Below are positions 3,501 through 64,000 of a stretch of 64,000 nt of DNA, piece after piece. Every line of letters begins with the position of its first letter. Within the stretch, counting starts at the first letter, position 1. The notes under the pieces are model-generated. The model was not told the origin of the DNA. It did no database searches and saw only the letters and a program-made list of their open reading frames with translations. The translations under genes were made by a program, and so were the position numbers. This stretch comes from Styela clava. Lineage: Eukaryota. The DNA is taken from NCBI RefSeq assembly GCF_964204865.1, contig NC_135256.1, positions 11,160,001 to 11,224,000 of the forward strand, read 5' to 3'.

Positions 3501-4982
3501 CTAATTTAGCATTAATCAATGTTTATGCATATTGAGTGCAAATCATATAAATACAGTAGTTATAGTATTCGAGTATGATGAAGATTTTAATCAAGTTTGA
3601 AATAGTAGTTCGAACAAAAAAACAAGTCATCTATTGAAAGAGCTTCGAACTATTTTGTTCAAACTTCCCTTTTTTCTTTTAAAACTTACCGGTGTGTATT
3701 TAGGATAGGATAGGATTTACATATTTATCACGGGGGAGATGAAAGTCGATAAGACGGCTTAATCATATGGCTGTTGTTAAAAAGATATATCAGTTTTAGT
3801 TATTTCATTTTTCAGGGGCATAGACTTGATGGTGGAGGAAGCCATGACCGACCAGCGGTAGCGTGAACCACCCTACGGCGGCGAGGAGTCCAGCAATCCT
3901 CTCACACATGATCATCTCTGCATGGTATTCGAACCTGCGATCCCACGAAGGGTAATCAGAGATGCGGTGGCGAGCGTATTCCTAACACATAGCACGATGC
4001 GCCACACCGCTGCGCCGTTAAATTCCATTTAACGATTTATTCACTGACTTCACTGAAAGTCGATGCAATCAGGCAATCAAGAGTATTTTACCAAGAAAAA
4101 AAATCTCCAGATAGGCAGAAGTAACAAAATTGCTTTCACGTTTTTAATTCAAAAATTGACTGAAAGTCATACCTGATACCCATTTCTAATACGAACAACA
4201 TCTCGTGGAAGACAGGATCGATCAACAACTTGAAGCTGAAAATATACATAAAAAATATCCGTGAAATGTTTAAAAATGTTTATAAAGTTTTTGTTATGTT
4301 GTGATTCGTACCTGAGATTCTTTTACAACTTCATCTTTACCATCAGGATACCATGTAACTCTGATGAATCCTTTATCTAAAGGAGTCGTTGCCAAATCCT
4401 CAAACTCAGAATCTGATGATTCTTCAGAATCATCCATTCCTACAGTATATGGTTAAGAAAATAATTAATGCATAAATGTGATAAGAGTTATGCAAAGTAT
4501 TGAAAGGAGCTTCAATGAAATGGTCAAGACCTGCATTATAACCAAAGTAAACTTACTTTATTATATTAGATTATATCAATCTTATTTCAGAATTATGATC
4601 AAATCAAAAACGCTAAATTCTGAGATCATGATTCTATTTGTCATTGAGCTTGAGAAAATTTGAGTCGGACAAATTTAAAATATATTTAAGCTGTTACAGT
4701 GTTATTTGCATGTTATAATTTATTTTGTCCATGTATGTATGGCCAGTAATATCTGTAAATGCTGATTCGGTAGGGCAATAATACTTTGTTCTTGACCCAT
4801 AACATAATTTTCAACTATAACAAACTACTCAAAGTAGAAGCACTGTACATTTTTTGCAAGACTGTAAGCTAAGATTGCAGACTTAACTTACCCCCAACTT
4901 GTTCCACAACAGCAAATTTGACAATTCCATTTCTTGATTTTCCAAAAACTAAATCATTCGGAAAAACCGAATGTTCAGACAT
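505..4982 (-). CDS. UBE2O: E2/E3 hybrid ubiquitin-protein ligase UBE2O, 5' portion (gene continues off the left edge). Exons approx. 4982-4892, 4439-4312, 4235-4173, 3385-3284, 3020-2923, 2230-2158, 1442-1305, 618-~505
   Basis: Manually spliced GT-AG exons give MSEHSVFPNDLVFGKSRNGIVKFAVV..GFIRVTWYPDGKDEVVKESQLQVVDRSCLPRDVVR..DDMVSYGPWLGRV..YYPGQFVRAPSKVFKNVQWISG. This is colinear with the UBE2O N-terminal region as I recall it (FSHDLV..VRVQWYPEG..DRSVVPRDVVR..YPGQVLIGPAKIFSSVQWLSG). Confidence 0.88.
3701..4017 (-). mobile_element. tRNA-derived SINE, older copy with an internal replacement, in a UBE2O intron
   Basis: Head (..TTCGAACCTGCG..GCGAGCGTATTCCTAAC on +), core and tail (AGGATAGGATAGGATTTACATATTTATC on +) match the family. 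Confidence 0.88.
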
Positions 4983-4984
4983 TT

Positions 4985-5042
<58 letters not shown>

Positions 5043-5307
5043 ATTCCACAATGTGGTTTATGCAATATATAAAAATCATAAAATAATAAATGAACAACAA
5101 TAACCAAGTATACAAAAATAACAAAGCATTTCATTACAGTCCATTGATTGTATTGTCCATAGTATCCCATTGCCATTGATATGTCCATCATGTAATTTCC
5201 ATAATCCATAATGTTTGATCATTATTTATATTTTTTAGTATTAATTATTAAAAAAAAAAATTTTAATATCTATTAGTTTTGATACTATATATCACATAGT
5301 TAAAAAT

Positions 5308-8300
5308 TCACAAGTTATTATAAATGATATCTAGTTCTCTTGTAAAATTAGGATATTGTCTCAACTTTTCTATATTTCTTCTTGCTATAAGTGACTTCTT
5401 AATTTTCATGATTACATTGCTAACATTTGGATTAACTTTTTGAAAAATTACTGTATTCCTTTCAAGCCAAATTTTGTGTCTGGCAGTGCAAAATAATAAT
5501 ATTATAGCATTCCGTTCTATTTTGGACAAATGTGAATAACATAGGTGAGTTAAATCTAGTAAAATACAAGTCTTGTAATTATTATTCAGTACACAATGAT
5601 TGATTTTTAATGCAACAGAAAAAATATAATCAAAAACATTTTGCGTAAAAGGACATTTCCAAAATAAATGAGAAACAAACTCAGGTTCTTGTGTGCAAAA
5701 CACACATAAATCATTCCCAGAAATATGTTTAATTCTGGGCTTTACTTTAACAGAAAGAATATCCCACATTAATTTAAAATTGAAAGTTTTTATGTTATTG
5801 GACAATATCTTACAATGTATTTCAGAGCAGGCTCCTTCAATTGTACCATTACGAAGAAATACAATTCTGTTTCCGCCCTTCAATTTATTCACAATTTTAT
5901 TATATAGTACCCTATGTTTTCCTTGTTTTAAATCATCCCCGGTTATGTTATATTGTCTAAGAAAATTAAGCAACTCTCCATAATATTTATAAGGAAAAAA
6001 AGCATGTGTCACATTATTATTAATCGGTAAATTAAGTAATAAACAAAGTTGTTGTCCAATATTATATTCAATAATATTGAATACTGATTGTCTACAATAC
6101 TCAATTTTGTTACTAATCCTATCACAATAATAGTCGAATGCAGCCATTACATATAAACACATAGTAAATAAAGGAATATTTATCATGTCATAGCCTCCAA
6201 CAGCCTTGTTTTTGCACAGTGTCTCAATTTTCAATATGTTTCTGCCATTAAATATAAACTTTTCTACAATTTCATTCACTTGTTTTGCAATTTTTAATGG
6301 GATGGGATATAATCTTGCACAGTATAAAAACAAAGGTAGAATTTTCAATTTTATTATCAGACATTTTCCATCTAATGATAATGGAATATTTGAAAGTTCA
6401 TCTATTACAGTTTTTGCATTATCTAAACAGTATTGCCAGTTTTCATCGCTGGTATCATGATTTGAAACCACCACTCCAAGTATGTTTAAAGTCAAGACAA
6501 CAGGTACTTGTGAAAAAAAATTAGGATTGCTCCATATTCCTAATTTTAAAAGTTTAGTCTTCTCTATGTTCAACTTCATTCCAGTTGCTAATTTGAATCT
6601 TGTCATCAAATCCATTGCAGAATATACAGAGCTTTTGTTACATAGAGTCAATGTGACATCGTCTGCATAACTAATGTGTTTAATTTCTCTGTTGTGTGGT
6701 ATTTTTAAGCCAATAATTTCTTTATGGGAATTAATTTTAATTAGGAGAGGTTCAATTGCTATGATAAATAAAAATAAACTTAACGGATCTCCTTGACGAA
6801 TTCCTCTATCAAGCTTTATAGTTTCGCTTAAGTATCCATTCATAATCACTCTGGTTTCCGATTCCTTGTATAATGTCTGAATTAATTTTATAAATTTATC
6901 TTTAAAACCGAATTTTTGAAGCACTTGGAAAAGGTAATCAAGGTCAACACTATCAAAAGCTTTGTTAAAATCCAACGAGATTAATGACGATTCTCCATGT
7001 TTATTATGTTCTTGAGTACATAAATCCCTCAACAAAATGAGATTTTCAGATATTCTTCTTCCCGGAATTGCATACTGATGTCTATCTATGATGTCAGGTA
7101 ATACACATTTTAACCTATTTGCCAATATTTTTGTAAAGATCTTATAGTCTGTATTCAATAATGCTATTGGTCTGTAATTTTCTATTTGGTCTGGTTCTCC
7201 CTTTTTATAAATTAAAGTAGTATATCCCAATTTCATGTCTTTTGTTATTTGACAATTTTCAAATATTTCTTCCAATACTTCAAAGAATTCTTTTTTTATG
7301 ATTTCCCAGCATTTTTTATAGAATTCAGCACTTATTCCATCAGGTCCTGGAGTCTTGTCTTCCTTGAGGGCTTTGATAGTTATCCAAACTTCATCCAAAT
7401 TAATAGGGGTCTCTAAAGTTTCTGCATCATATTCTTGTAATTTTATTGTTTCAGGAATATTTTCTATAAAAATCTTTTGGGTCTCCATATTGTTTTGTTG
7501 TTTTTTGTATAAATTTTGATAAAAATTTTTGACTATGGACATTTTTTCATATATTTTTTCTTGTGTGGTACCTTCTTCATTTTTCAATTTGGTGATATAA
7601 CATTCTTTGTTCTTTTTTCGCAGCTTTTTGAAAAAATACTTGTTGCATTTTTCATGTGTGTCATAATGTTGTGCTAAGTTTAAAATTCTAATTTTTTCAC
7701 TTTTTTGTCTTTGTTTTGAAATCAATTCTTTTTTTAATTTATTGAATGTAGTCAACACTTTATCTCCTCTATCTAATCTTTCTTTCAATTCTTCCAATTG
7801 TTTCATCCCTCTATTATATTCAGCTTTTGCTTCCCATGCTATTTTAATTGAATGTTTGATCACCAAATCTTTAATCTTTTTCTTTATTTCTTGCCACCAT
7901 TGAGTTTTTGTATCAAATAAAACTTTTAATGTGCACCAACTATTCCATTTGTTCTGGAAGTCTTCAATAAAACTTTGGTTATTATAGACTGAAACATTAT
8001 TTTTCCAAAATCCGTGTCCCTTTTCTTCCAATTTACTAATAATCTGAATATCGACCGAGTACATGTCATGATCCGAGTTATATGTTGGTGAACAATATAT
8101 GTTGGTTATATGACATAGCCTATGAGAACAATATAAACGATCTAATCTGGCTTGTATTGTGTTATTTCTCCAGGTATAGAAGGTATTACTATGAGAAAGG
8201 AAATCCACAGAATCGATCAAGTTAAAAGTTTCTACAAGGTCATTCAATGCTTCAGACACATATTCTTTCTTGGCTCTTTTATTACTTGTTCTATCTTTAT

Positions 8301-8760
8301 CTATATCATGAACACAGTTCATATCACCACCAAAAACTGTTGCATGTTGAGAATATAGGAATCTGTAAATACCGTTGTAAAAATTTTCCTGTATTCTAAT
8401 GTTAGTTCGACAAGGGGCATAAATATTAACCAAATGAATTTTTTCACCATGTATATCCACTTCAGCAGTAAGAACTCTTCCATCGTTGTCGAATGTGACA
8501 TTATAAAACGAAAAACTTGACATCTTTGATTTTAGTAATATAGCTACCCCTCTCGAGTTTGAATTACCATTATTCCATATGCTGGTGCCATGTCTCCATT
8601 CTCTACGCCATGTTAGTTCAACATCGGTAGTGCAGTGTGTCTCTTGGAGAAAAATTATATCTGCCTTTTTTTTTGATAATTCGAAGAATACATCTCTACG
8701 TTTTTGATTGTCTCTAAGGCCATTAACATTAAGTGTGAGAATCGTCAAATAAATTACCAT
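5308..8760 (-). CDS. LINE ORF2p: APE endonuclease + reverse transcriptase + C-terminal Cys/His motif (~1150 aa from the first ATG at 8760)
   Basis: Endonuclease motifs LNVNG, LQETH, NIYAP, GDMN, RLD, SDH; RT motifs PGPDG, YRPIALLN, DFNKAFD, GIRQGDPLS, YADD; C-terminal CVFC..E..HLFWKC. No stops or frameshifts. Confidence 0.97.
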   Translation of the reverse strand: MVIYLTILTLNVNGLRDNQKRRDVFFELSKKKADIIFLQETHCTTDVELTWRREWRHGTSIWNNGNSNSRGVAILLKSKMSSFSFYNVTFDNDGRVLTAEVDIHGEKIHLVNIYAPCRTNIRIQENFYNGIYRFLYSQHATVFGGDMNCVHDIDKDRTSNKRAKKEYVSEALNDLVETFNLIDSVDFLSHSNTFYTWRNNTIQARLDRLYCSHRLCHITNIYCSPTYNSDHDMYSVDIQIISKLEEKGHGFWKNNVSVYNNQSFIEDFQNKWNSWCTLKVLFDTKTQWWQEIKKKIKDLVIKHSIKIAWEAKAEYNRGMKQLEELKERLDRGDKVLTTFNKLKKELISKQRQKSEKIRILNLAQHYDTHEKCNKYFFKKLRKKNKECYITKLKNEEGTTQEKIYEKMSIVKNFYQNLYKKQQNNMETQKIFIENIPETIKLQEYDAETLETPINLDEVWITIKALKEDKTPGPDGISAEFYKKCWEIIKKEFFEVLEEIFENCQITKDMKLGYTTLIYKKGEPDQIENYRPIALLNTDYKIFTKILANRLKCVLPDIIDRHQYAIPGRRISENLILLRDLCTQEHNKHGESSLISLDFNKAFDSVDLDYLFQVLQKFGFKDKFIKLIQTLYKESETRVIMNGYLSETIKLDRGIRQGDPLSLFLFIIAIEPLLIKINSHKEIIGLKIPHNREIKHISYADDVTLTLCNKSSVYSAMDLMTRFKLATGMKLNIEKTKLLKLGIWSNPNFFSQVPVVLTLNILGVVVSNHDTSDENWQYCLDNAKTVIDELSNIPLSLDGKCLIIKLKILPLFLYCARLYPIPLKIAKQVNEIVEKFIFNGRNILKIETLCKNKAVGGYDMINIPLFTMCLYVMAAFDYYCDRISNKIEYCRQSVFNIIEYNIGQQLCLLLNLPINNNVTHAFFPYKYYGELLNFLRQYNITGDDLKQGKHRVLYNKIVNKLKGGNRIVFLRNGTIEGACSEIHCKILSNNIKTFNFKLMWDILSVKVKPRIKHISGNDLCVFCTQEPEFVSHLFWKCPFTQNVFDYIFSVALKINHCVLNNNYKTCILLDLTHLCYSHLSKIERNAIILLFCTARHKIWLERNTVIFQKVNPNVSNVIMKIKKSLIARRNIEKLRQYPNFTRELDIIYNNL

Positions 8761-8821
8761 TGTGAGAGTTCTTTTTCTTGTTTTTTTTTTTAAAAGTAGA
8801 TTTGACGTTTTAACAACAACT

Positions 8822-9964
8822 TTATTCACTCATATTGTGTATATAATCTTTAGCTTCTTTCATAGTCATTATCTTTTGTTTTCTAGATGTTTTCTTTTTT
8901 CTTGGTGGTGACCTTTCAATAGAAGAAGACTTGTCCACGGTTAACTGTGAATTTTCACCTTGGTTTTGTGTATGAGGTTCTAACAAATACAAAATTGTTT
9001 TTTCTGCTGTATTGGATTGCATTTCCTCTTCTTTATTCAATGTAATTATCTCACTATTATCCTCACTGATGTCAGACATATTTCCAAACATTTCTGGCAA
9101 AAGGGTTGGACTTATGGATGATTTCTCACTGTGATCTTCACTAATTTCGTTCGCGGGAGTGCTCTGGGTTGGATTATCATTTATCAATTGTTTTTTACTA
9201 ATGTTATTTTCAGTATTATCAATTTTGTTTTTTTCTACTTGTTTGGTAATCTTTTTAGCTTCATTGTCTATTTCCTTTTCAGTTTCGTCAACTTTGGTCT
9301 GTTCTGGATTCGGTGATCTTTGTCCTGTGTCTTTATATCTTTCTAATTTTGGAATGAAATATTCACAATTATTCATTATATGGCCAGCTTTGCCACAAAT
9401 ACGACATGTTGGGGTCTGCCCCCAATATCTGACAAAAAGTGAATGTCCTTTTAATTTTACGTAACTTTGAATTGGTTTTTTCATTAAATCGTCTTTTTTT
9501 ATAAAAAATCTTCGTATGCCATTTTTCATGTTGAACCTATCTTTCAATATAAGTACTTCTCCTATTGTTCCGTGATTTTCTTCAAAGTGTTCTTTAATTT
9601 CTTTATTTTCCATTGGGCATGGCACATTGTGTACGAATACTGCCACATTTTCCGGTACATAAAGTCTATGAAAAGGAAGTGTTTCTGCACCTACTTTTTT
9701 AAGCTCCCATAATTTCTTATCCACATCAATAGCTGTTGCTCTTGTTTTAAATGTTAAGTCCACCGTGTACCTGGACGTAAGTACAAATCCGTCCACAGTG
9801 TCGAATACAATATTCAGTTTTCTAAAAAATTGCCATATATCTTCTCTTCGAATTACTTTTTCATCATTAAATTTCAATGCCATGCACTTCGTTCTGTCTA
9901 ATGTGTTTCTCTCCTCCTCATCTTTTTTACGATTCTGTTTCAGTTTCTCAGAGTATAGAGACAT
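8822..9964 (-). CDS. LINE ORF1p (RRM-like region + CCHC zinc knuckle, acidic/basic low-complexity tail), Tx1-type
   Basis: Intact ORF directly upstream of ORF2. Contains VFVHNVP..I..HF...G.I (RRM-like) and Y.GQTPTCRICGKAGHIMNNC (CX2CX4HX4C). First in-frame ATG at 9964. Confidence 0.9.
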   Translation of the reverse strand: MSLYSEKLKQNRKKDEEERNTLDRTKCMALKFNDEKVIRREDIWQFFRKLNIVFDTVDGFVLTSRYTVDLTFKTRATAIDVDKKLWELKKVGAETLPFHRLYVPENVAVFVHNVPCPMENKEIKEHFEENHGTIGEVLILKDRFNMKNGIRRFFIKKDDLMKKPIQSYVKLKGHSLFVRYWGQTPTCRICGKAGHIMNNCEYFIPKLERYKDTGQRSPNPEQTKVDETEKEIDNEAKKITKQVEKNKIDNTENNISKKQLINDNPTQSTPANEISEDHSEKSSISPTLLPEMFGNMSDISEDNSEIITLNKEEEMQSNTAEKTILYLLEPHTQNQGENSQLTVDKSSSIERSPPRKKKTSRKQKIMTMKEAKDYIHNMSE

Positions 9965-10521
9965 CTTCGGACATCGTTTCACACTTTCAACAACAGGATT
10001 TTATTAAAGTTATAATTTAGATACTAATTATAGTTAAACTTAATCAAAATCCTTAAACGGAGACTTGACTTGACTTGACTGCGACTTTCGACCGATGAAC
10101 AGAAAAGTCTTTGTGAATTTCGATAGTTAGATCACTGCTTTTCGTTTTGAATACGATTGCTCAACAAACACCCTGCAATGAAGACAAAAGTCGAGCGCGA
10201 ACTGTCGTTCGCCGCATGTACTCGGGGAAATCCCAGCAACACAATCAAACAAAGTCAATCAAACCGCGTCGCATGGTGGCGAACATTAATTTCTCCTATT
10301 TAAATTCAGAAGTTCACCGCCGCTCAAATAAGCTGGCAAACAGGTTCAATTTTAGATATCAACTACTCAAGATGTTAAATATGTGGGCAACAGTTAGAAA
10401 CTTGAGTTTTATTAGACATATATGTTGATAGGTTTATTTATTAATAGATTTAAAAATGGTCGCTGTCTATGATGGAAATTTCTTCCTCAGCTTCGCCGGG
10501 GTCATAGCGTATTCCCAAACT

Positions 10522-10524
<3 letters not shown>

Positions 10525-10553
<29 letters not shown>
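10525..10553. repeat. (TA)n microsatellite
   Basis: About 14 consecutive TA units. Confidence 0.95.
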
Positions 10554-10558
<5 letters not shown>

Positions 10559-11497
10559 CTCGATACACCGAAGCTAAAGACTTCGTGCGCTACCAACGAC
10601 TAACGTGCGCTACTATATATACTTCCAGTAAACAAAAAAGTTTGAATGTTCTCATCTTGCGTTTCTTCCTTCCGCACGGGTCTAAAGCGAACATGTACCA
10701 CTTCTTTCAATCCAACATCTATCTTGCACGTTTTGAATCTTACTAAGGTTTTGTTGGCTTCCCTGATTCCGTCTGTAATCAGTTCTATCCTGATTTTATC
10801 TTTTTTTTTTCTCGTCTTTTATGCCGATTATGGAGTCTAAATAAACACACATTGGTGAAACCGATGCAAAAATATTTAGTTTGCTAATATAAATTTGATC
10901 TTTCAACAAAACTGCGCTACCAAAAAACAGTGCAGTTGTTCAGGGAGATGAGGCAAACTTTTAGTTCTTATTTAATCGTACCTAACAAATGGTAAAAGCT
11001 CGTGATTTTATTGCCATTCTATTCTAAATGAACAGCTATATTGTCCTGCCAGACTTTTTCCCACCTCTATGGGCAACCTATAGCATACACCACCTCCCTC
11101 ATTTCTCAGTCTTGTCCCGTCAGACAGATATTGACGATTTTTTAACAACATATCATAATTATAAAGACAAAATAAAATGTGAATTACATATATAAATGGT
11201 ATTGCATGTTTGTCCACCAATGTAAACAATTAAAACTGGATTGAAATTCATGGCTAAACCAAGTAGTGATGTTCATTAATTGTAGAATTTAAATCCATAT
11301 TGAAAAATTAAGCACCAGAATTATTCAAAATGAATGTTCTATTTCCTCTACAAAATATCTTGGATACGCATCAAAAATTCAACTTTTGATTTAGGCATCA
11401 ATCTGCACATGCGGAACAAATTTGGAACCCTTTTTGTCATGTCTGGTGCTAAATTCATGAGCACGACACTTCCTCAGTGTCAACACGAAATTCAAAA

Positions 11498-63118: not shown

Positions 63119-64000
63119 CAGTGGCGGCGCGTGGTCATTTTGACAACCGGGGCAAGCTACTGCGGGACCAAGTCACCCCCATCTACGGGGGCAGGATGAG
63201 CGCTGTAAGTTCTCTTATCATTTTATGAGTATAAAAATCATTCCATCGGTAACAACCAATCGGCAAAAGCGACAATTTTTAACGATAAGAAAGTGTCTTT
63301 AAAACCGGTCCAAGTCAAGGGATTAATAAATATAAACATAGTTTATTTTATCCAAAAATACCCATCATCGTGCCCACGGAGGGACAGCTCGTGACAACCA
63401 ATGAACTTCAAAACATCTATCAATCGACCGAGAACATGGCGGTTTTTCTCGACGTTTTGGTTGTGCCGACGAATAGAAACCGCGCGTCCTTCATCCAACT
63501 GTGCTGCAATATTAACATTTCCGAATGTTCGGTATTTTACTGCATTGTCCAGATGCTCCATAGAAGATTGATGATCCCTGGCACGCTCGGAAAGATGTTT
63601 AAGATCTCCAAAACCAAATTTACACCAACGTGAGTCACGGGCGGTAGCAAAAAGTAGGCAATAAAAACAAAAAAGTGCATTTTTGTCCTCGCTGTAACAC
63701 AACCATTCGTGTTTTTTATACCAAGTTTCTGCGCAGAATGTACGCCGACGCTTTCCTCCGTCATGGGATTGTTCCAGTGAACAATTTTTTGGTTGATAAG
63801 GCCCAAGACGTTGTACCTCTAATTTTTGTTCCAGCGGCAGCTGCGAAAACGGAGTGCGAAGTAGTGCATCAACCTTTTTCATTATGAGGTCTAAGGCTAA
63901 GAAATGCGAAGCCGGAAAGAAGTGAGGAGCTCAAAAGGAATGTGGAAAATCGAAAGCAAATGGACTCAAGGTCTCTAACTGATTCAAATAGCGAAACAAG
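63119..64000 (-). mobile_element. hAT-family DNA transposon, deletion derivative (other end off-window)
   Basis: Terminal CAGTGGCGGCGCGTGG.. next to a (TA)n run; carries a truncated transposase ORF. Confidence 0.8.
63343..63882 (-). pseudogene. Truncated hAT transposase (ZnF_TTF + start of DUF4371; ZMYM1/PRKRIR-like)
   Basis: R.F...WY....WL.YS..K.ALFCFYC.LF, H..S..H, and L.LRGHD followed almost immediately by a stop. No DDE core or dimerisation domain. Confidence 0.85.

Follow-up and report, generated by a model that had tools for sequence, protein, structure and literature searches.

The stretch of DNA analysed here, called the window, comprises 64,000 nucleotides (nt) of the Styela clava assembly GCF_964204865.1 (contig NC_135256.1, positions 11,160,001 to 11,224,000 of the forward strand). 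On its minus strand, in sense orientation directly upstream of UBE2O, it carries an intact, young retrotransposon without long terminal repeats (LTRs), which is a member of the L1 superfamily (L1/Tx1 group; the homologues found carry no clade names). Analysis of this copy and its relatives gives good support to a strong and oriented preference of this lineage of long interspersed nuclear elements (LINEs) for the 5' ends of host genes. The open reading frames (ORFs) and untranslated regions (UTRs) of the element, its target-site duplication (TSD) and the surrounding features are as follows, in window positions.

4892 to 4982, minus strand: first coding exon of UBE2O, with its ATG at 4982-4980, 7 nt past the nick
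4985 to 4989, minus strand: TSD AAAGA, 3' copy
4990 to 5039, minus strand: poly(A) tail, 50 nt ahead of the TSD
5040 to 5307, minus strand: 3' UTR, ending in the motif used for collecting relatives
5308 to 8760, minus strand: ORF2, 1150 amino acids (aa), with apurinic/apyrimidinic-type (APE) endonuclease, reverse transcriptase and zf-RVT
8822 to 9964, minus strand: ORF1, 380 aa, with RNA-binding domains and a CCHC knuckle
9948 to 9974, minus strand: upstream ORF of 8 codons overlapping the ORF1 start, read from the sequence
10039 to 10049, minus strand: degenerate match to the 3' end of the spliced-leader-like sequence (4 mismatches in 15), whose AG is the joining point in relatives
10061 to 10071, minus strand: two extra AAGTC units and a T where leader and element meet, similar to what comes after the 37-nt match on C3
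10072 to 10108, minus strand: host-like head, matching G000:C3:11602091-11602127 at 36/37 nt and in that one place; its first base is common with the TSD
10108 to 10112, minus strand: TSD AAAGA, 5' copy; the nick C|AAAG fits the family motif
10108 to 10195, minus strand: host UBE2O 5' leader in empty-allele RNA
10173 to 10175, minus strand: CAG acceptor in the 5' region of UBE2O, likely for trans-splicing
10196 to 11100, minus strand: CpG-rich gap between a NAXD-like gene and UBE2O, likely the UBE2O promoter

An intact L1/Tx1-type element in sense before the UBE2O ATG had been proposed from the letters of the window (hereafter the original prediction), and was borne out by two open ORFs, preserved catalytic motifs and a poly(A) tail. 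ORF2 consists of an N-terminal APE endonuclease, a reverse transcriptase and a C-terminal zinc-binding domain, and its top match in the PDB is human L1 ORF2p (E 2e-72). The Pfam matches of ORF1 to RRM and zf-CCHC are weak and under the cut-off, and its atlas matches are to CCHC and ZCCHC3-like clusters (0.90-0.94); the combination of RNA-binding domains and a CCHC knuckle in ORF1 is a feature of the Tx1 clade. The 5' UTR belonging to the element itself measures about 100 nt and has 27% GC, and the first codons of the upstream ORF are conserved in alignment with the diverged copies L055 and L056. At the other end, a run of 53 A at 5039-4987 is followed by G-AAA-ATG and stops 4 nt short of the UBE2O ATG, confirming that the poly(A) abuts GAAA-ATG. 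Two further near-full-length copies are more than 99% identical to the one at UBE2O, both frames being open in one of them, and the lineage displays the usual hallmarks, namely a poly(A) tail, TSDs of 6-21 nt (32 sites) and frequent 5' truncation (median homologous length of 173 nt). No RNA records are listed for the element, which carries no information on its expression. Record 9 of contig set X5 is a 4859-nt element contig over 5222-10063 with 19 unaligned letters at its 5' end.

The host gene was identified by two exons matching UBE2O in the PDB (E 9e-4 and 3e-4); exon 1 searched alone gave no match, and spliced joints tie it to the later exons in three contig sets. The gene upstream has an exon matching NAD(P)HX dehydratase. 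The observed/expected ratio of CpG (CpG o/e) is 1.15 over 10108-11100, compared with 0.68 for the body of UBE2O and 0.37 for the gene upstream, and RNA-type coverage is absent within 10591-11007. The second contig of set X11 (depth 38.6) seems to stop at 10174, in the AG of the acceptor (a bin depth of 0.09, that is 1 nt by depth arithmetic), as expected of a leader ending in AG, so that this acceptor is likely trans-spliced. The X5 contig continues unspliced past the acceptor to 10195.

This X5 contig (2817 nt, depth 15.3) also points to an allele without the element, as its exon 1 leads into the piece 10108-10195. A join of 10108 to 4984 fits the record length, the 33 letters to the piece end at 10140 and the depth of 0.81 in the bin 10174-10590. 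The original prediction had the empty allele joining about 10139 or about 10290 to 4981, which would give 2 letters and a depth of 2.05, or a negative value and 3.34, so that neither join fits. Consequently, the TSD is AAAGA and not the proposed GAAAA (10143-10139), and the empty leader measures 67 nt from acceptor to ATG instead of about 33 nt. The two sequences on which that proposal drew are both present, CAG at 10175-10173 serving as the likely acceptor and AGAAA at 10294-10290 being rejected as a junction. In X11, depth is at the UBE2O level at 10140-10147 and low inside the element. The joint was obtained by arithmetic and not read directly because one of its sides falls in the poly(A) run, which is skipped. 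That the element is spliced out was considered and rejected, since the TSD yields a GT...AG intron in no register; an empty allele is therefore indicated, and we infer that at least one other individual has UBE2O RNA without the insertion. The nick is 60 nt past the acceptor and 7 nt ahead of the ATG, placing the element downstream of the acceptor and within the 5' UTR, and because of this position the filled UBE2O allele is likely damaged. The Hi-C run, with about 1x depth, is of no use for zygosity.

Relatives were collected genome-wide with a 3'-end pattern that gave 85 matches vs 1 in the control. Before the flank statistics 11 matches were removed by eye (4 without homology, 3 duplicates or neighbours and 4 short or degenerate), leaving the window copy and 73 other sites; homology is shorter than 300 nt in 49 of these 74 copies. 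The 32 sites with TSDs share a loose, L1-type nick motif, [C/T/G]|AAA. A Tx1 family is taken as sequence-specific when one target sequence occurs in more than 20% of its flanks (PMC4494074); beyond [C/T/G]|AAA no target sequence was common across the present flanks, and none reached that share. Targeting of start codons or acceptors, the central idea of the original prediction, found no support either: an ATG lies within 10 nt at 11/73 other sites vs 20% in the control, and the 60 nt upstream contain an acceptor-like motif at 14/73 vs 15%, so that neither is enriched. An acceptor within 90 nt of the downstream ATG, seen in 13/20 cases vs 47% in the control, is uninformative.

Some sites are remarkable for their arrangement. 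At C8:15.984-15.986 Mb (L147 and L232) a near-full-length copy is immediately preceded by a short fragment that has the same orientation, indicating a site hit repeatedly; two family fragments 2.8 kb apart diverge at C18:8616855 and 8619662 (L053), as expected at a bidirectional promoter; and two copies lie within or beside a common repeat resembling a miniature inverted-repeat transposable element (L037:2990-3014 and the 5' flank of L050).

The placement of the copies is strongly oriented. At 59 of the 71 sites with sufficient flank, CpG o/e on the upstream side exceeds that on the downstream side (means 1.04 vs 0.75; p 1e-8), a bias which holds after repeat masking (50/58) and appears per subfamily as 12/14, 11/13, 27/30 and 9/14. 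The difference exceeds 0.3 at 39/71 sites and is below -0.3 at 2/71, compared with 10% at random, and CpG falls sharply at the nick itself, from 4.05 to 2.92 per 100 nt. A short interspersed nuclear element (SINE) used as control showed no such bias (19/32 and 2/5); it is the high-copy transfer RNA (tRNA)-like SINE found at window 3701-4021 inside a UBE2O intron. Gene bodies are methylated in tunicates. Downstream of the sites there is a G>C skew matching the UBE2O sense strand, and an ORF of at least 150 aa in sense downstream with none upstream occurs at 24/60 sites vs 17/310 random positions, the latter being drawn from 31 loci and therefore not independent.

Host genes show the same orientation. 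The Pfam scan, with windows of 3.5 kb downstream and 3 kb upstream, covered 223 + 2 of 1561 unmasked flank ORFs, selected on composition score or length whatever their strand and side, and four transposon-domain matches (three antisense-downstream and one sense-upstream) were excluded. Counted per site (n=73), host genes were sense-downstream at 29, antisense-downstream at 1, sense-upstream at 1 and divergent at 3, and 28 of the 29 sense-downstream genes begin within 3 kb. Hand-picked extensions added further sense genes (CCDC34, NARG2_C, SIKE, UPF0220, MED14 and a zinc-finger gene). In a held-out set of 8 stretches from copies found by ORF1, with five candidate 3' ends (one unverified) and three stretches without a locatable 3' end, the CpG drop recurred in 5/5, with 3 genes in sense, 1 antisense and 1 site with none. 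Nick motifs near the sites are slightly commoner antisense (1083 vs 1268), so that motif supply does not account for the orientation, which is fixed relative to host genes as in position-specific L1s. Splice-signal strand counts in the flanks gave no significant bin, and the upstream k-mer search at the sites gave no convincing promoter motif. Seven sense donors lie within 18 nt of the nick, a post hoc count that overlaps the nick motif. Within 400 nt downstream of the sites, the palindromic words TACCGGTA/ACGGTAC are enriched on both strands, possibly as a first-intron or outron feature. As anchor, the transcription start seems a better fit than the ATG.

The 5' ends of the near-full-length copies bear on how the element RNA is made. 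A 15-nt motif resembling the Ciona spliced leader (table in PMC1488885) occurs with at most 1 mismatch in 4/16 of their 5' flanks vs 0 in controls, at 67, 67, 86 and 96 nt before ORF1. This test is partly circular, the motif having been taken from the same copies; the array test is independent. Followed by GT, the motif has 1337 matches genome-wide vs 28 in the control, and the first 100 matches listed include a tandem array at G000:C4:23296310-23483490 in which the same two variants alternate, each followed by GT. It thus presents a multicopy short exon with a GT donor, the combination by which spliced-leader genes are recognised (PMC7986045). The Ciona leader pattern itself gave 2 matches in the genome vs 3 in the control. 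Judged from sequence, the C4 array probably represents the leader RNA genes of this species, and the leader-headed copies were probably made from leader-capped RNA. An unrelated CR1/L2-like LINE in a SIKE intron (L087:7378 and L040:3-2486) also begins with leader-like sequence, so that leader-capped LINE RNA may be general in this genome.

The UBE2O copy has a different head, other near-full-length copies beginning at positions corresponding to window 10047-10032. The C3 match of its 37 nt lies 1.27 kb upstream of the INTS2 start codon, in the CpG-rich head-to-head gap between INTS2 and GARS; it opens with a CA dinucleotide and is followed by a GT donor. CA is the preferred transcription-start dinucleotide in Ciona (PMC4691747), and the stretch likely marks the INTS2 transcription start. 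The leader/element junction repeats C3 sequence at a site fitting the nick motif. The simplest reading of these letters is that a donor copy probably lay just behind the INTS2 start and that the host leader was carried along. In the same head-to-head promoter an older family relic faces GARS (L092:3983-5140). A twin-priming inversion at L036 was rejected because the 37 nt are 97% identical and the nearby relic 69%.

Sister families with 36-38% identity in ORF1 are clustered among histone genes at G000:C8:7.35-8.07 Mb and also occur on C291 (L246-L255). H3 and H2B were recognised there by their N-terminal peptides and the neighbouring H4, H2A and H1 by Pfam. In six flanks the element is joined in sense after H3 codon 10, five of the six at the same H3 position from unique upstream DNA and one in tandem, and in both of two further flanks it follows the first codons of an H2B-like gene, also in sense. 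One H3 tandem reads poly(A), 15 nt and then the H3 ATG. Rfam gave 0 matches on the histone-cluster loci and L092. These sister families look site-specific at H3 and H2B and, set beside the positional lineage, offer a natural gradation between sequence-specific and positional targeting. A Tx1 family with H2B as its target may have been catalogued already; the literature checked for one contains no mention of 'histone'.

The reading that probably accounts for these observations is that of a LINE lineage which integrates in sense behind the starts of RNA polymerase II (Pol II) transcription, is transcribed from the host promoter and is released by leader trans-splicing in the manner of an operon cistron. 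By analogy with the pairing of TRE5-A ORF1p and TFIIIB, the ribonucleoprotein would be tethered to Pol II during initiation or pausing, or to factors of Pol II, and the tethered endonuclease would nick the template strand near the start site. The new copy would then be transcribed from the captured promoter and its RNA freed by spliced-leader trans-splicing; where a copy lies upstream of the host gene's acceptor, splicing would rescue the host gene, and such copies may be tolerated for that reason. Promoter capture and behaviour as an extra operon cistron had been part of the original prediction and gain support from the sense placement at gene 5' ends, the foreign host leader and the leader-like heads; the specificity for A-rich start contexts that went with them does not. 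Recognition of such contexts or of acceptors is hardly credible for this lineage, being contradicted by the ATG and acceptor counts against matched controls and by the lack of any shared target beyond the nick motif, even though a likely start codon is found within about 35 nt of four sites (window, L041, L118 and L145) and the sister families are fixed at histone gene starts. That the poly(A)-ATG junction is an artefact of assembly is scarcely more than conceivable: no read is displayed across the filled junction and Hi-C coverage is about 1x, but the breakpoint deduced from a contig of another individual entails a duplication of 5 nt at a nick-motif site.

Insertion without a tether into any open, unmethylated and AT-rich DNA, with selection or slower turnover leaving the survivors at gene 5' ends, is quite unlikely. 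It would suit the loose nick motif, the fact that the sites are survivors and the possible rescue by trans-splicing of genes with sense copies upstream of an acceptor. However, 26/31 random loci have a CpG o/e of at least 0.84, so that a preference for open or unmethylated DNA would by itself leave the copies dispersed; promoter insertions are expected to be depleted by selection, not enriched; the SINE lacks the bias; and of 8 copies at least 97% identical over at least 120 nt, 4 have a Pfam-confirmed gene in sense downstream and 1 a weak one. Targeted placement combined with an internal promoter, the leader heads being inherited from master copies and the INTS2 piece stemming from a one-off template switch to a short start-site RNA, is unlikely as well, despite the vacant INTS2 locus, the identical head of L229 and L230, which belong to one subfamily, and the 19 unexplained 5' letters of the element-length X5 contig. 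Against it, the array variants differ among subfamilies and stand at differing distances from ORF1 (-67, -86 and -96), and the junction repeats C3 sequence at a nick-motif site. Reverse causation, by which LINE pieces and intronless genes would be chimeric retrocopies or the LINE 3' end would supply the promoter, draws on the many intronless genes downstream and is very improbable: TSDs flank the LINE piece alone at 32 sites, intron-bearing genes are hit too (UBE2O, CCDC34, ZC4H2, Ras and SIKE), homology is below 300 nt in 49/74 copies, the CpG-rich side is upstream, and the empty UBE2O allele retains the gene and its expression.

Several observations weigh against integration behind Pol II starts with leader release. 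CpG loss stands here as a proxy for gene-body methylation, in place of mapped transcription starts, and 12/71 sites show the reverse CpG pattern. The distance from nick to ATG spans 7 nt to 3.5 kb, and 44/73 sites are without a Pfam host gene starting in sense within 3.5 kb. Every site is a survivor in one assembly, no de novo insertion having been seen. As for the RNA, 12 of the 16 near-full-length copies lack a clean leader, the C4 array is a candidate by copy number and GT alone, no element is present at the INTS2 locus of this assembly, a template switch could supply the 37 nt, and contig sets X5, X8 and X11 were typed as RNA by tool guess only.

The closest parallel is offered by the Dictyostelium elements TRE5 and TRE3 of the L1 clade, which are likewise APE-type two-ORF elements specific for position and orientation rather than sequence, with a promoter aided by the neighbouring gene and a reported tether between ORF1p and TFIIIB (PMC5911963); theirs are narrow windows at tRNA genes transcribed by RNA polymerase III (Pol III), whereas the present lineage is found in sense at diverse Pol II genes. 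Candida Zorro3 differs in targeting poly(A) tracts, without TSDs, never inside ORFs and with no trans-splicing, and the part of PMC1965478 at hand gives no orientation rule. Tx1L, Keno, Kibi, Koshi and Tx1-Mar share the APE-type two-ORF anatomy, but in the present lineage no target sequence recurs and the genes hit are single-copy (PMC4494074). In the type-A start-site-targeting elements Mu, P, Tf1 and MLV integration is tied to Pol II initiation in a permissive transcription environment and tethering has been proposed; these, however, are DNA transposons, LTR elements or retroviruses, and the terms non-LTR, LINE-1 and orientation do not occur in PMC7337890. R2 resembles the present element as a promoter-less element riding a host transcript (PMC4494074). 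R2 inserts in ribosomal DNA, whereas the present element appears to receive the leader as a substrate, which also sets it apart from NeSL/SLACS, whose targets are the leader genes themselves. Human L1, which is known for 5' transduction and for making retrocopies and has the closest solved ORF2p, shares the A-rich nick motif, poly(A) and TSDs (mostly 9-17 nt); it has an internal promoter and no start-site targeting, and the ORF1p of the present lineage differs by its CCHC knuckle. No animal LINE that integrates behind Pol II promoters in a specific orientation was found in the literature searched, most subscription journals and Repbase being outside its scope, and Repbase entries might already describe these families. 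The start-site seekers known so far are DNA or LTR elements, and the position-specific L1s described target Pol III genes. If correct, the proposed mechanism would be a new survival strategy feasible only in a trans-splicing host, and the copies would also preserve, like fossils, a record of where transcription starts and of the spliced leader.

Such elements may plausibly have contributed to operons that begin with intronless genes. Near the sites, many conserved housekeeping genes of 300-1400 aa (L132, L134, L106, L051, L140, L111 and L148; extensions L194-L213) are intronless and stand in same-strand runs. Of 20 sites extended for long ORFs, 19 open with coding sequence in a single frame, and in many cases a second such sequence comes next on that strand, such as an RNA polymerase I subunit and then a DENN protein, GABPA and then NUP160, or CZIB and then PPIE (names based in part on Pfam), and a 410-aa ORF lies 79 nt before a CDK-like kinase; 20/73 sites is a lower bound for this pattern. 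It is tentatively proposed, with more doubt than confidence, that the LINE machinery has been a builder of tunicate operons. Host messenger RNAs copied by it in trans would land in sense behind promoters as intronless first cistrons, and the landed retrocopies would gain expression at once and replace their parents; such cargo may be tolerated there because trans-splicing would rescue the displaced gene. In Ciona, single-exon genes make up 15% outside operons, 38% inside and 60% at the first position, for reasons left unclear in Satou 2008. The operon-builder proposal would, if true, account for the 60% of Ciona operons starting with a single-exon gene, and would offer a mechanism, open to test, for two puzzles of tunicates: why first cistrons so often have a single exon and why retrogene replacement is frequent. 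It fits the same-strand runs of intronless genes at the promoters hit, as well as the result that no intron-bearing parents were found for the 2 genes tested. The link is weakened by divergent neighbours and other cyclophilins, which are also often intronless, without a species baseline for comparison; leader relics before intronless genes (0/28) are unsupportive.

Two minor observations concern other sequences. An ORF at window 63343-63930 resembles what we take to be the N-terminus of a hAT-type transposase. One exon in the genome carries a Cellulose_synt domain above the cut-off, which points to a tunicate host, a cellulose synthase gene being, to our knowledge, unique to tunicates among animals.

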